Assembly: GCF_003334765.1 (NCBI RefSeq)
Contig: NZ_QOWT01000022.1
DNA length: 64,000 nucleotides
Strand: one strand, 5' to 3'
Source: Escherichia coli
Lineage (GTDB): Bacteria; Pseudomonadota; Gammaproteobacteria; Enterobacterales; Enterobacteriaceae
The notes beneath the pieces were generated by a model. It did no database searches, was not told the origin of the DNA, and worked only from the letters and a program-made list of their open reading frames with translations. Of the stretch, positions 3,853 through 18,924 are shown piece after piece. A program made the translations under genes and the position numbers. The first letter of the stretch is position 1, and each line of letters starts with the position of its first letter.

Positions 3853-4659
3853 ATGAGTGTTATGAATCCAATAAGTTCTAATATATTTAATGCTGAATTT
3901 TTAAACACCCCGGCAGCGGCACTTGCCGCATGGATTTCCATTATTGGAGCTGTTATAACTTTGGTGACGATAGTTATAAGAGCACTATTCAAATATAGAA
4001 AATCTCATGATGTAATTTTGAAAAAATCAGGAATACCTGCGTTTATATTGAATTTTTTTCTTATACGAATATCATTAAAAAGGCTGCCTACTATCACATG
4101 GGCTGAAAAATCAATCACGGTTCTCTTTTCACTTCTTTTTTTGTGTGCAATTTATATTTTTGGTCCAGTTTTCATCCAAGCCATTAGAACCCCACCAAAT
4201 AGCACATTGCTTTATTGGATAAAATCCGGTGAATCATTTTATATGTCAAAAAAACTGGCGACTGCAGCTACAATATTAACCACTCCTGATTGGGAAATAT
4301 CAAAGGATGATTGCGAAGAGTCATCCTCTGCCAGTACAGAGAAGTACAAATCATTAACTATCGAACATAAAGAAATTCTTTGTAAACTACTAACCACTGA
4401 TGAAGGGAATGCTTACATTGATGAAGAAGTCAAGAATTTCGTTAAAGACAAATTCTTTATCTATTCCTTTGCCCCAACAACCATATTTATTCTATTATGG
4501 ATTTCTTTGGGTTTTATACTGACCATTCACTATTCTAAAAAAGTTAGGAAATATATTCTGACTGAACAAAAAAATGCAATTCATTGGGCATATGGTGAAT
4601 TCAAGACAGAAGGAATCTATTCAATATATCAAGAGTTAGAACGTAAGACTCACCATTAA
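3853..4659 (+). CDS. Hypothetical polytopic membrane protein (moron inserted between tail genes S and V)
   Basis: 268-aa ORF, strongly AT-rich unlike flanking tail genes; several hydrophobic segments (e.g. AALAAWISIIGAVITLVTIVI, ITVLFSLLFLCAIYIFGPVF, TTIFILLWISLGFILTI); no recognisable domain. Confidence 0.6.
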   Translation: MSVMNPISSNIFNAEFLNTPAAALAAWISIIGAVITLVTIVIRALFKYRKSHDVILKKSGIPAFILNFFLIRISLKRLPTITWAEKSITVLFSLLFLCAIYIFGPVFIQAIRTPPNSTLLYWIKSGESFYMSKKLATAATILTTPDWEISKDDCEESSSASTEKYKSLTIEHKEILCKLLTTDEGNAYIDEEVKNFVKDKFFIYSFAPTTIFILLWISLGFILTIHYSKKVRKYILTEQKNAIHWAYGEFKTEGIYSIYQELERKTHH

Positions 4660-15331: not shown

Positions 15332-15841
15332 TCACAGCAAACCGAATGAAGCACCGAGGCCAGTCACGGTATCAACTGCACTCGCCATCGCAGGATTAGC
15401 CTGTAAACGGGCCTGCAATGAAACAGCAGCCAGCGCCATCAGTCGTGTTACAGAGTTAATGCTGCTGATAGCATCACGACGACCGGCACTAGTTTTTACA
15501 TCACCAGATACCGCACCTGCTGCAACACGCCCGATCTCTGCAGTTGCGCTCATGACGTAATGCGGCAGTTTCTCTTTTGCTACCTCATTAATCGGTACAC
15601 ATGGCAGACAATGAATCTGTGCCAGAAAACCATCTACCAACGTTGAATCTTCAGTCAGATCGGTAAGCAGCCAGATTTCTGGTGCGGTTAATAAATGAGG
15701 TTGAGCTGGGTTCAGCTTGTTCCGCAGAATCTGCACATTCATGCCCGCACGTTCTGCCAGTTGCACCAGATTGTGGCGCAGTGCGAATGCACGACAGGCT
15801 TCATCAAAATGTGGATGTTTGGAAACTTGGTAATCAAACAT
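15332..15841 (-). CDS. cII: Phage regulatory protein CII (186-type, CP76 family)
   Basis: ORF 15332-15850; start at [19 protein letters not shown]... gives 169 aa; sequence matches what I recall of 186 CII. Confidence 0.75.
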
Positions 15842-15905
15842 GGTTTTCAACTCCGAACTTATCGCAAAATCGAACTCAGCGTCTTATTGCGAAAATAGAC
15901 GTCTA

Positions 15906-16109
15906 TTAAGCAGACAAAGCATCAACAGTCAGAGCAGCCAGGTTAATCATTACCTTTTCACGTTTTTTGTCTTTACGAAGACGATGACGAGGTAGTCGGC
16001 CATCAGCCAACATGTCGTTAATCGTATCAATAGAAAGGCCAGTCAGTTCGCTATAACGTTCGATTGTGACATGTGGTGTATTCAGAGTAATTGAAATGTT
16101 AGGTGTCAT
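15906..16109 (-). CDS. Apl/Cox-like excisionase and transcriptional regulator
   Basis: 67-aa ORF divergent from the repressor gene, first gene of the early operon. Confidence 0.6.
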
Positions 16110-16254
16110 AAGGCAACATTCCTTCTAGATATGGCTTGTGGCGAGCCGTTGTTTGTCGTGATTAGTAGTGAAGGCTCCAAAAGAACACTTCTGGTTCAAC
16201 TTTAAGATCGCTTTTGGAATCTGTCAACGAATTTTGGATTTCTTTGGAGGACTT
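16110..16254. promoter_or_regulatory. Lysis-lysogeny switch region between apl and cI
   Basis: Intergenic region between divergently oriented apl-like and CI-like genes; operators and promoters expected by analogy with 186 but not mapped. Confidence 0.5.
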
Positions 16255-16824
16255 GTGGATTTCAATAGCGGCGGTAAGAAAGCCATAGAACGTTTAGTTG
16301 AAGCATATGGGTTCGGTACCCGTCAGGCTCTATGTGATCATTTAGGTGTTTCTAAGAGCACCATGGCAACGCGCTATATGCGTGATATTTTTCCAGCAGA
16401 TTGGGTAATCCAGTGCGCCCTTGAAACGGGCACCTCGCTTAATTGGCTAACAACAGGGCATGGTTCAAAGCAAGCATCAGCAAATACAAATACTATAGAA
16501 GTAGAAAAATATTTATTGTCTGATGGAGCATTGCAGAAAGACGGTTTTTATATTTTTGATAAGGGATTTCTACCCTCTACGTTTAAAAAACCTTTTGTCA
16601 TCACAGATAACAATTCTGAATTTATTTGTGATAAAGAATTTGATGATATACGTGATGGTAAATGGGTAATAAGTATTGATGGCGAAATAACGATCCGTGA
16701 CATTACTCGTTTACCCGGTGGAAGAATCTTCGTCGAGGGTGGAAACAGAGCCTTCGAATGCAAGATAGAAGACATTGAAATAATTGGTAAAATTATAAGT
16801 TTAACAGTCAAGTATGTTAAATAG
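16255..16824 (+). CDS. cI: Immunity repressor (186 CI-type)
   Basis: ORF 16168-16824; start placed at GTG 16255 preceded by GGAGGA; product ...ERLVEAYGF...QCALETGTSLNWLTTG... fits the 186 CI N-terminal HTH region; length ~189 aa. Confidence 0.7.
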   Translation: MDFNSGGKKAIERLVEAYGFGTRQALCDHLGVSKSTMATRYMRDIFPADWVIQCALETGTSLNWLTTGHGSKQASANTNTIEVEKYLLSDGALQKDGFYIFDKGFLPSTFKKPFVITDNNSEFICDKEFDDIRDGKWVISIDGEITIRDITRLPGGRIFVEGGNRAFECKIEDIEIIGKIISLTVKYVK

Positions 16825-16839
16825 TACCGGGAGGAAACT

Positions 16840-17031
16840 ATGCTTGGTAAGGTATTTTTTGTGGTTTTGTCATGTTCTTTGTTATTAAACCCACTAACTA
16901 CCTATGCTAGAAATTATCCCTGCTCAGGGAAAAAGGGAGGTGTTTCTCACTGTACCTCAGATGGCAAATTCGTTTGCAATGATGGAACTATTAGTAAATC
17001 CAAAAAAATCTGTACTAAAAACTCACGATAA
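16840..17031 (+). CDS. Small cysteine-rich secreted peptide, 63 aa, between cI and int
   Basis: N-terminal hydrophobic signal-like segment [23 protein letters not shown] followed by ~40 residues with four Cys; AT-rich. Confidence 0.45.
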
Positions 17032-17219
17032 CTTTTGCTTTTATATCTGCGTCTAAAATAAAAATGAGCCGCAGGTTAACCGCAAAAGTTACATGCTCAC
17101 ATAGCAAAAAGAATAGCCAACTTAATTATGGCTTCAGTGAGATGTATGGTCGTAGGATTTCATACATTGACACTGGTTATACATACAGTGAAAATGCTCT
17201 CTACTGGAGGGCATTTTTT

Positions 17220-18296
17220 ATGGCAGTACGAAAACTCACCACTGGGAAATGGCTTTGCGAATGTTACCCCGCCGGACGAAGTGGGCGTCGTGTGCGTAAA
17301 CAATTCGTCACCAAAGGCGAAGCACTGGCTTTTGAGCGCCACACGATGGAAGAAACCGAAGCAAAGCCCTGGCTGGGTGAATCAGTGGATCGTCGAACAC
17401 TGAAAGACGTGGTTGAGCTATGGTTCAAACTACATGGTAAATCTCTGACAGCTGGGCAGCATGTCTATGACAAATTGCTGTTGATGGTTGACGCTCTGGG
17501 CAATCCTCTTGCAACCGATCTCACCTCTAAAATGTTTGCCCACTATCGAGATAAACGCCTGACAGGCGAGATCTACTTCAGCGAGAAATGGAAGAAAGGA
17601 GCAAGCCCGGTCACCATTAACCTGGAGCAAAGCTATCTAAGTAGTGTTTTTAGCGAACTATCCCGTCTGGGCGAATGGTCGTATCCGAACCCACTGGAGA
17701 ACATGCGAAAATTCACCATCGCAGAAAAAGAGATGGCATGGCTTACCCATGAGCAGATTGTTGAATTGCTGGCTGATTGCAAACGTCAGGACCCAATTCT
17801 GGCACTGGTAGTTAAGATATGCTTAAGCACAGGCGCACGCTGGCGTGAAGCCGTAAATCTTACCCGCTCACAGGTGACCAAATACCGAATTACCTTTGTC
17901 AGAACGAAGGGGAAGAAAAACAGAAGCATCCCTATCAGTAAAGAGCTTTACGAAGAGATCATGGCGCTTGATGGGTTCAATTTCTTCACAGACTGCTATT
18001 TTCAATTTTTATCCGTGATGGAAAAAACGTCTATCGTGCTCCCTCGCGGTCAACTCACACACGTTCTGCGCCATACGTTTGCGGCGCACTTCATGATGTC
18101 GGGTGGAAACATTCTGGCCTTACAAAAAATTCTCGGACACCACGATATAAAAATGACTATGCGTTACGCACATCTGGCACCGGATCATCTGGAAACGGCG
18201 CTCCGTTTCAATCCTCTGGCAACGCTGCCAAGTGGCGACAAAGTGGCGACAAAGTGGCGGCAGCGGTTGGCATTACCCCGTAATAACCACCACTGA
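17220..18296 (+). CDS. int: Tyrosine integrase (P2/186 type)
   Basis: ORF 17064-18296; start chosen at MAVRKLTTGKWLCECYP...; C-terminal region HVLRHTFAAH...MRYAHLAPDHL typical of tyrosine recombinases; 3' end abuts host DNA. Confidence 0.9.
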   Translation: MAVRKLTTGKWLCECYPAGRSGRRVRKQFVTKGEALAFERHTMEETEAKPWLGESVDRRTLKDVVELWFKLHGKSLTAGQHVYDKLLLMVDALGNPLATDLTSKMFAHYRDKRLTGEIYFSEKWKKGASPVTINLEQSYLSSVFSELSRLGEWSYPNPLENMRKFTIAEKEMAWLTHEQIVELLADCKRQDPILALVVKICLSTGARWREAVNLTRSQVTKYRITFVRTKGKKNRSIPISKELYEEIMALDGFNFFTDCYFQFLSVMEKTSIVLPRGQLTHVLRHTFAAHFMMSGGNILALQKILGHHDIKMTMRYAHLAPDHLETALRFNPLATLPSGDKVATKWRQRLALPRNNHH

Positions 18297-18301
18297 CCAC
18301 C

Positions 18302-18339
18302 AACCTAACTTATTGTTTTTAATCTAACTTATTGTTTTC
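18302..18339. repeat. Tandem 19-bp direct repeat just downstream of int (candidate att or arm-site region)
   Basis: AACCTAACTTATTGTTTTT followed by AATCTAACTTATTGTTTTC, 17/19 identical. Confidence 0.5.
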
Positions 18340-18387
18340 ATTAACCCGTTTACATAAATGGGTTTTTTGTTATCTAAAACTTATCTA

Positions 18388-18924
18388 CTACCCTGCAACC
18401 CTCTCAACCATCCTCAAAATCTCCTCGCGCGATAGCGGCTTACGGTCGGTGACAAAATGCAGCGTCATCCCCTCAATAAACGCATCAAGCGCGCGGGCGG
18501 TTCCGGGTTCAAACCATTGTTCGAGCGTTTGCTGACTGCGCTGCATCCAGTTTTGCATTACCGTTTTTAATAGCGGTTTTCGGCTAGCCAGCGCGTAGAG
18601 CTGGTACATCAGCTCCATGTTATCCGGCGTTGCAACCTGTGAGCTGTAGATCATATCGGTGATAGCCTGGCATGCGCCCGGAGCATCACTAACATCGCTA
18701 AAAAATGCCTGATATTGCCGGGACATGATCTCAGTAAAACTGCTGAACGCCTCCAGTAACAACTCATCAATTCCTGAAAAATAGTAGGTCATCGATCCCA
18801 ACGGTACCCCGGCAAGGGTAGCAATTTTGCGGTGCGTAACAGCATGTATTCCGTAAAGTTTCACCGCCTCCAGCGTGGCCTGGATAATTTTTTCTCGCCG
18901 TTGCGGATCGTTAGCGCGACGCAT
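18388..18924 (-). CDS. rcdA: TetR-family transcriptional regulator RcdA (YbjK)
   Basis: ORF 18388-18954; start at [14 protein letters not shown]... gives 178 aa. Confidence 0.85.

Follow-up and report, generated by a model that had tools for sequence, protein, structure and literature searches.

We analysed a 64,000-nt stretch of the Escherichia coli contig NZ_QOWT01000022.1 (RefSeq assembly GCF_003334765.1), referred to here as the window, with a focus on a small gene that lies between the repressor gene cI and the integrase gene int of a 186/P2-like prophage. The open reading frame (ORF), as read from the sequence, starts with ATG at 16840, comprises 63 codons and ends with the stop codon at 17029-17031. 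We refer to it as the ydcA-like gene. It very probably encodes a YdcA-family pre-protein that is exported by the Sec pathway as a basic, periplasmic mini-protein of 40 residues with four cysteines, is carried as cargo by the prophage, and is made constitutively in lysogens. The gene has the following parts:

16840-17031, + strand: ydcA-like gene, precursor of 63 residues (NF007463, phrog_6000, RefSeq WP_000900883.1; PF27300 on the near-identical protein P0001)
16830-16834, + strand: Shine-Dalgarno sequence GGAGG, 5 nt 5' of the ATG, by direct reading of the sequence
16840-16908, + strand: predicted Sec signal peptide, residues 1-23, with cleavage after T-Y-A (variable hydrophobic leader, conserved Ala at position -1)
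16909-17028, + strand: predicted mature peptide of 40 residues (alignments A1, A3 and A4, nonsynonymous divergence, AlphaFold2 model, physico-chemical values)

A conserved gene of the YdcA family

A preliminary description, made from the letters of the window alone, had placed a 63-residue ORF with a hydrophobic leader in AT-rich DNA between cI and int. The sequence and the G+C content bear this out, with values of 0.354 for the ydcA-like gene, 0.382 for cI and 0.367 for the spacer in front of int, compared to 0.495 for the whole window. For the mature peptide we computed a net charge of +7, an isoelectric point (pI) of 9.7 and a mass of 4.3 kDa. It contains Cys28, Cys38, Cys46 and Cys58 as well as an SKSKK motif, and the protein ends five residues past the fourth cysteine. 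A fifth cysteine, Cys12, lies in the leader and is not conserved among relatives. An Rfam scan of 15800-18500 returned nothing relevant, and the reading as a non-coding RNA was rejected on this ground.

The protein scored 115.8 bits against the NCBIfam model NF007463 (curated cut-off 93), with residues 5-63 aligned to model positions 1-58 of 58, and it matched phrog_6000 with 1.9e-34. An identical protein exists in RefSeq (WP_000900883.1) under the name 'YdcA family protein', so that the gene and its family name are already known. The Pfam family PF27300 ("YdcA") is precomputed on P0001, which differs from the window protein by one residue, and on 57 other relatives. Our own Pfam-A scan of the 63-residue protein gave a noise match only; the library used predates PF27300. 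Clustering at 90% identity divides the family into 683 clusters and at 50% identity into 464, and it is spread over Enterobacterales, Acinetobacter, Moraxella, Haemophilus and Betaproteobacteria. In a large protein index, the best 120 matches listed were all stand-alone proteins and speak to taxonomic breadth only.

E. coli K-12 has a paralogue, YdcA (b1419, 57 residues), which is encoded between rydC and hokB; its family entries are PF27300, NF007462/NF007463 and PRK10040. Both proteins combine a predicted signal peptide with the pattern PCSG-KGG-C-FVC-DG-S-SKK-C, have four cysteines and are similar in size (57 versus 63 residues). They differ in that the window protein fits NF007463 and not the K-12 model NF007462 (68.5 bits, cut-off 118), is more basic, and is encoded in a prophage lysogeny operon. 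Genes called "ydcA" in Bacillus, on the F plasmid and in the gonococcal island are presumably unrelated namesakes. We rejected the UniRef label "Conjugal transfer protein", as nothing supports it and no transfer genes are located nearby. Literature searches by protein accessions and by "YdcA family" yielded nothing on function.

Conservation was concentrated in the mature part. The four cysteines were invariant in all 24 aligned relatives and reached a conservation of at least 90% in the family at large. Together with the cysteines, the motifs PCSG-x-KGG, F[VI]C-x-[DN]G and S-x-SK span residues 27-58, and their columns were invariant or nearly so in alignments A1, A3 and A4. The prophage copies of the window, P0012 and P0019 have only 34-41% of third codon positions in common, which corresponds to synonymous saturation, and they differ by one or two residues in a 34-codon core, with a nonsynonymous divergence (dN) of 0.02-0.045. 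The leaders vary freely among relatives, while the 40 mature residues are nearly invariant. According to these alignments, purifying selection is strong and confined to the mature part.

The preliminary description had also considered that the ORF might be spurious. A chance frame in AT-rich intergenic DNA would be in line with the shortness of the ORF, its low G+C content of 0.354 and the fact that the homologue is unannotated in several phage records, e.g., those of HP2 and S2. Against it stand the score above the curated family threshold, the hundreds of clusters with conserved residues, a dN far below the synonymous divergence (dS), and the strong ribosome-binding site. We regard the chance of a spurious ORF as negligible. 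Because of the family score, the cluster counts, the conserved cysteines and a dN far below the saturated dS, the comparisons confirm a genuine and strongly conserved YdcA-family gene. The frame and the four cysteines, whose conservation had been put forward as a check, are kept across related prophages and the wider family. Thus, the earlier view of a real gene with four cysteines in a mature region of about 40 residues holds throughout the family, while it missed the identity of the product as a member of the named YdcA family with b1419 as its K-12 paralogue.

To judge export, we examined the leader. Its best 10-residue Kyte-Doolittle mean is 2.73, and a hydrophobic leader was found in 82 of 87 stand-alone members. 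The residues T-Y-A occupy positions -3 to -1 and align with the conserved alanine of the family: alanine occurs at the cleavage offset of the window protein in 69 of these 87 members, and Ala23 is invariant in the 24 aligned relatives. Removal of the leader after T-Y-A, as proposed previously, fits this alignment, and we infer that the precursor is cleaved there. K-12 YdcA is reportedly cleaved after residue 20 (UniProt; Link et al. 1997). In E. coli, a Sec leader delivers a protein to the periplasm, and the window product is most likely exported to this compartment. The earlier term "secreted" therefore holds with respect to Sec export, for which the leader speaks, but nothing indicates release beyond the periplasm. 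A lipobox of the form [LVI][ASTVI][GAS]C was not found at the end of the leader, where V-L-S-C12 has Leu at position -2, and the hydrophobic stretch before Cys12 comprises seven residues only. In the absence of a lipobox, and with Cys12 not conserved in relatives, we rejected the reading as a lipoprotein.

The lysogenic unit and its cargo slot

The ydcA-like gene is flanked by cI and int, as the preliminary description had stated:

16255-16824, + strand: cI repressor gene, GTG start, 189 residues, first gene of the lysogenic transcript (phrog_4, 5.3e-42)
17032-17219, no strand: AT-rich spacer or variable cargo slot between the ydcA-like gene and int
17220-18296, + strand: tyrosine integrase gene, last gene of the lysogenic unit (phrog_1, 3.3e-74; start as in the identical RefSeq locus)
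18343-18364, + strand: intrinsic-terminator-like hairpin after int (terminator scan: 9-pair stem followed by TTTTTGTT, a T-run)

An identical locus in RefSeq carries 'phage repressor protein CI' at matching coordinates, and sibling loci carry Phage_CI_repr and Phage_CI_C. The integrase is 95-97% identical to those of P2-like Escherichia and Klebsiella phages. Genes resembling apl/cox and cII are located upstream of cI on the opposite strand. Since the host genes rcdA and ybjJ follow int, the locus is the right end of a 186/P2-like prophage integrated beside rcdA.

The stop codon of cI (TAG, 16822-16824) is separated from the ydcA-like gene by 15 nt. No terminator-like site on the + strand was found between cI and int in the terminator scan, and the first one 3' of cI is that at 18343-18364. 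Because of the 15-nt gap and the lack of a terminator before int, expression together with cI in lysogens is expected. Co-transcription from the repressor promoter, which had been suggested before, is the simplest reading of the sequence and remains plausible.

Several further features were observed in this region. A σ70-like site is located at 17167-17195, ahead of int. Another one lies on the - strand at 16792-16820 (TTAACA-17-TATAAT, 11/12) and points leftward, antisense into the 3' end of cI. An inverted repeat in the spacer (17069-17085) forms a hairpin that is terminator-like on the - strand only. This hairpin and the site at 16792-16820 could either be due to chance in AT-rich DNA or contribute to antisense control of the lysogenic transcript. 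The int frame is open for 52 codons further 5' (17064-17219) of the RefSeq start at 17220, and ORF lists give a protein of 410 residues; homology to the int module of other phages does not start before about 17142. At the 3' end of int (18230-18262), an 11-bp unit, AAGTGGCGACA, is present in three copies, compared to two in strain VTB97584v. Its copy number shifts the frame of the C-terminal tail of the integrase (358 versus 350 residues).

The interval between cI and int holds different genes in related prophages. Sibling prophages share the integrase and the rcdA attachment site with the prophage studied here. In one of them, ydcA is replaced by a gene for a 558-residue ATPase between cI and int; the ATPase matches the validated defence system PD-Lambda-1 (3e-120). 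In others, cI is followed by ydcA, a gene for a 443-residue KAP NTPase that matches the defence candidate PDC-S20 (1.3e-171), and int. The slot genes of the sibling prophages are located at L005 822-2498, L086 4198-5529 and L111 3937-5268. From PD-Lambda-1 and PDC-S20 in the sibling slots it follows that the cI-int slot of E. coli 186-like prophages acts as a defence hotspot. According to Rousset et al., the interval between cI and int is such a hotspot in K139-like Vibrio phages, which are related to P2 (PMC9122126).

In phage K139, the cI-int interval holds glo, whose product is annotated as "periplasmic protein; involved in phage exclusion" (PMC4870250). Like the window protein, Glo is small and has a putatively cleavable leader that would direct it to the periplasm; both genes are part of the PL lysogenic operon of a P2-related phage, with cI on one side and int on the other. 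However, Glo comprises 137 residues, is largely non-basic and lacks the four-cysteine motif, and hhalign gave a probability of 0.1% for homology. We therefore rejected Glo as a homologue and regard it as an analogue in position and compartment only. The window protein also resembles Cor of phi80 and N15, Llp of T5 and Ltp of Streptococcus phages, which are small envelope proteins of temperate phages, expressed in lysogens, and which block the entry of competitors. Those proteins are lipid-anchored, whereas the window protein has neither a lipobox nor sequence similarity to them.

The 1151-bp cI-ydcA-int junction was detected in 970 of 5426 complete E. coli genomes, with at least 80% coverage in 590. 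Through the 186/P2-like prophage alone, the YdcA family reaches about a tenth of complete E. coli genomes. BL21(DE3) has a decayed copy of the prophage (L110, NC_012892.2, 871979-875927), in which the replication endonuclease and cII genes are pseudogenes, but cI and int are intact, as is the ydcA-like gene (R24K). Divergent copies with different leaders stand behind different CI proteins in further prophages of E. coli and Enterobacter. The Haemophilus phages HP2 (NC_003315.1) and S2 (Z71579.1) contain an unannotated YdcA-family ORF of 60 residues, whose ATG overlaps the stop codon of cI. Its position in HP2 is L002 2920-3102 (complementary strand, about 2486-2668); it precedes orf1(S) and int and falls within the annotated pL lysogeny operon. 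Relatives are encoded on 494 IMG/VR contigs and in phages of five genera. A scan of viral contigs returned 80 loci with essentially the same prophage, which adds to the counts and not to the diversity.

In siphophages of Moraxella and Acinetobacter, the interval from the tail genes to the tape-measure gene contains a ydcA-like gene as cargo; in Acinetobacter, accessory genes such as HicAB and SocA/Panacea are found there as well. Relatives are encoded in very many A. baumannii assemblies, and the copy examined is prophage-borne. In five A. baumannii prophages (L112-L116), the ydcA-like gene (4001-4177) is followed by a DUF4236 gene that starts at 4186 (4269 in L113), which leaves a gap of 8 nt in four of the five loci. 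The pair belongs to a variable group of cargo genes that lies between those for the tail tube and the tape measure and includes HicAB, SocA_Panacea, KilA-N, YedD and LprI. This pairing is restricted to Acinetobacter prophages. Plasmids of 4-5 kb in Acinetobacter and Psychrobacter carry a YdcA homologue as well. In pApiMCR53a (L105, 3.9 kb) and pA40P1 (L106, 5.4 kb), it is one of five genes and is followed by a gene for a weakly conserved membrane protein. No general partner gene emerged among 18 neighbouring proteins compared from phages, plasmids and chromosomes; the only likeness, a weak one, was between two membrane proteins of the small plasmids.

Nuclease fusions and resemblance to Dis2

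In a census of architectures we inspected 48 family members of at least 110 residues, in which the YdcA module directly follows the signal peptide. Nucleases were the only catalytic domains found C-terminal to the module. Endonuclease_NS was present in three members (best E = 1e-32), SNase in one (7e-24) and PLDc_2 in one (7e-19). Weaker matches were obtained for Endonuclea_NS_2 (one member, 1.2e-3) and for an HNH-like tail (one member, 0.022, plus a motif recognised by eye). According to these domain matches, the module is fused to three unrelated nuclease families and possibly, on weaker evidence, to a fourth. The fusion proteins are P0094, P0149, P0173, P0177, P0166, P0204, P0127 and P0211 (loci L099-L104). 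The SNase fusion is encoded in a P2-like phage beside gpD, gpU and the tape-measure gene, and the gene for the HNH-like fusion, in a phage-like contig, overlaps the stop codon of a helix-turn-helix repressor gene. The basic positions of GxKGG and SK[KR] are kept in the nuclease-fused copies. In the window protein, no nuclease domain follows the module.

DNases that block DNA uptake are known from mobile elements, namely IdeA/SxnA of Vibrio integrative and conjugative elements (ICEs) and Dns of Campylobacter CJIE1 (PMC12378983). All of them act on incoming DNA; IdeA/SxnA are periplasmic, and Dns is periplasmic or extracellular (PMC12378983). The YdcA-nuclease fusions, one of them in a P2-like phage, resemble this class. 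The window protein differs from these enzymes in that it has no catalytic domain and comprises the accessory module only.

Other partners of the module are a second cysteine module similar to PBCV_basic_adap (two to six members), VasL and DUF4124, and some members consist of two or three modules in tandem. The second cysteine module was seen in P0056, P0058, P0060, P0062, P0089, P0101 and P0141, which comprise 100-137 residues and of which one is from Herbaspirillum. Its pattern, C-x-C-x5-C-[TA]-G-x-R-x-G-x-[YF]-C, is probably the source of the PBCV_basic_adap matches in two to six of the 48 long members. A gene for HxsD of the His-Xaa-Ser system is located near YdcA-module genes in two unrelated contexts (L098 1757-2080 and L100 2622-4021), one of which also contains a radical SAM gene. 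This may be a coincidence or may reflect a shared type of island.

AlphaFold2 predicted a short beta-hairpin fold for the window protein, with a predicted local distance difference test (pLDDT) value of 76.7 for the precursor and 80.6 for the mature peptide. A Foldseek search returned Dis2 (Lpg0823) of the Legionella Dot/Icm outer-membrane cap as the first match, with a probability of 0.80-0.87, a template-modelling score (TM-score) of 0.58-0.64 and 38% identity, and the next match had a probability of at most 0.14. A full-length profile matched Dis2 with E = 1.3e-5, partly owing to the aligned leaders. With a mature-only profile the match fell to E = 0.024, level with low-density lipoprotein (LDL)-receptor class A repeats. 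In an hhalign comparison, a Dis2-like protein was aligned with 82% probability, and that protein carries PF27300. A single-sequence search of the PDB with a two-repeat family member did not recover Dis2. Homology between the YdcA module and a lobe of Dis2 is probable on the basis of profiles and predicted structure, with moderate statistical support, and Dis2 is the only credible relative of the module in the PDB. The match to LDL-receptor class A repeats (E = 0.011-0.06) covers just an F-x-C-x-[ND]-G hairpin. As the module has four cysteines instead of six and lacks the acidic cluster DxxDxxDxSDE, we rejected this kinship.

Dis2 consists of two lobes with five disulfides, is located near the outer membrane and contacts DotK, DotC and DotD; it has been described as Legionella-specific and without structural relatives (PMC8486379, PMC12716638). 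Dis2 and the YdcA module are alike in being exported, disulfide-stapled and based on a beta-hairpin (in the case of the module, all by prediction), and they have the motifs MGGI-x-C and L/FVCN-D/N-G in common. However, Dis2 is a tandem of two lobes (modelled residues 40-115) and a stoichiometric part of a secretion machine, whereas the window protein has one lobe and four cysteines. Within the neighbourhood of the window protein (about 13-20 kb), no type IV secretion genes were found; the neighbours are cII, apl, cI, int, rcdA and ybjJ. With a single lobe and no secretion system nearby, orthology to Dis2 was rejected.

Possible roles of the YdcA module

Based on these comparisons, we propose a mechanism. 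The ydcA-like gene would be expressed constitutively in lysogens from the repressor transcript. Cleavage of the 23-residue Sec leader would leave a strongly basic peptide of 40 residues in the periplasm, where oxidation of its four cysteines would yield a small beta-hairpin module. This module may bind nucleic acid or another polyanion, and mobile elements may deploy it as a part of secreted nucleases or, as in this prophage, by itself. On its own, it would bind DNA, or the apparatus through which DNA enters, on the periplasmic surface of the envelope and hamper the entry of a superinfecting phage or of conjugative or transforming DNA, as a functional counterpart of K139 Glo. We put forward such a periplasmic DNA- or polyanion-binding mini-protein, which is expressed in lysogens and interferes with incoming foreign DNA, as a tentative proposal that may well prove wrong. 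It is suggested by three lines of evidence: nucleases are the only catalytic partners of the module among the 48 long members, the cI-int slot otherwise holds defence or exclusion genes, and periplasmic DNases of mobile elements block DNA uptake (PMC12378983). The mechanism is a new proposal for an already known gene.

Several observations weigh against interference with incoming DNA. A PADLOC-DB 2.0 scan of the window protein gave no family match even at E values up to 10. The net charge of the module is just 0 to +3 in the nuclease fusions and, since these modules are only weakly basic, charge alone is no argument for DNA binding. Phage DNA is normally shielded by a conduit as it crosses the periplasm, and E. 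coli does not readily take up DNA by transformation; therefore, a free DNA-binding peptide would have no obvious target. Chromosomal copies (K-12 ydcA; P0052) are found in housekeeping contexts, and the only reported phenotype is the sensitivity of a ydcA mutant to 3-hydroxypropionate (PMC7642389), both of which point to a physiological role in the envelope. Finally, Dis2 makes protein-protein contacts, and its deletion is nearly without phenotype (PMC8486379, PMC12716638).

The module might instead act as an envelope-docking adaptor whose ligand is a protein or lipid on the periplasmic face of the outer membrane, in the manner of Dis2 in the Dot/Icm cap. In that case, the copy that stands alone would block or modify a machine or receptor associated with the outer membrane, comparable to exclusion by Cor or Llp without a lipid anchor, and the fusions would tether nucleases where DNA enters. 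The resemblance to Dis2 (Foldseek 0.80-0.87; hhalign 82%), the only credible structural relative, which adjoins the outer membrane and contacts DotK, DotC and DotD, is in favour of such a role. So are the low basicity of the module in nuclease fusions and the grouping of the gene with periplasmic or lipoprotein cargo, e.g., YedD and LprI, in A. baumannii prophages. However, a general anchor should occur on many kinds of enzymes, and the catalytic partners found are nucleases only. In addition, the mature-only match to Dis2 (E = 0.024) is no better than the LDL-receptor noise, Dis2, with its two lobes and five disulfides, is restricted to Legionella, and no conserved partner gene is located beside ydcA-like genes. 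We consider docking rather doubtful, yet worth keeping in mind. Unlikely, in our view, is that the gene is host-fitness cargo that shares a role of chromosomal YdcA in periplasmic stress or envelope homeostasis, e.g., in tolerance to organic acids. Deletion of ydcA in K-12/W sensitises cells to 300 mM 3-hydroxypropionate, and ydcA is reportedly acid-induced under the control of YdcI (PMC7642389). The location of chromosomal members among housekeeping genes and the intact cI-ydcA-int genes amid pseudogene neighbours in BL21(DE3) fit such a role as well, and the extreme conservation of the mature sequence across Gamma- and Betaproteobacteria suggests a universal target. The phenotype, however, comes from a single study, is suppressed by deletion of yieP and has no mechanism attached to it. 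Moreover, a fitness role leaves the nuclease fusions and the defence-hotspot location unexplained, and the enrichment on mobile elements is strong (494 IMG/VR contigs, five phage genera, plasmids of 4-5 kb).

With 40 residues, a charge of +7, a pI of 9.7 and four cysteines, the peptide is formally defensin-like, and a cationic, cysteine-stabilised antimicrobial or bacteriocin-like peptide could be freed by lysis or in vesicles and harm competitors. We regard this as very improbable, as no immunity, processing or dedicated export genes are located nearby, a plain Sec leader ends at the periplasm, the chromosomal single-copy paralogues have no immunity genes, and use as the N-terminal part of nucleases is unlike a toxin. 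The preliminary description had named the gene a candidate lysogenic-conversion factor, which is a reasonable category for it and a plausible role. Overall, its picture of a real and likely exported gene can be kept, and the gene can be placed in a cargo and defence slot; secretion beyond the periplasm cannot be kept.

Extending the proposed interference with incoming DNA to the whole family is a somewhat bolder step, and we offer it as speculation: the YdcA module (PF27300) may be an unrecognised periplasmic DNA-binding mini-domain which, alone or fused to nucleases, intercepts foreign DNA on behalf of phages, plasmids and ICE-like elements. The position behind phage repressors in a defence slot, the fusions to unrelated nucleases and the resemblance to Dis2 converge on this idea. 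The literature searched made no mention of the repressor-adjacent hotspot position, the nuclease fusions or the likeness to Dis2, although the Pfam entry PF27300 may note some of these.

If the inferred role fails, the ydcA-like gene stays a conserved envelope cargo gene. If it is true, it would add a compartment-specific layer to exclusion and to defence against gene transfer, with a new small periplasmic DNA-binding fold and a new route by which prophages exclude competing DNA. It would also give E. coli ydcA a function and account for where Dis2 of the Legionella Dot/Icm system came from. The widespread and functionally uncharacterised YdcA family thereby gains a testable handle.

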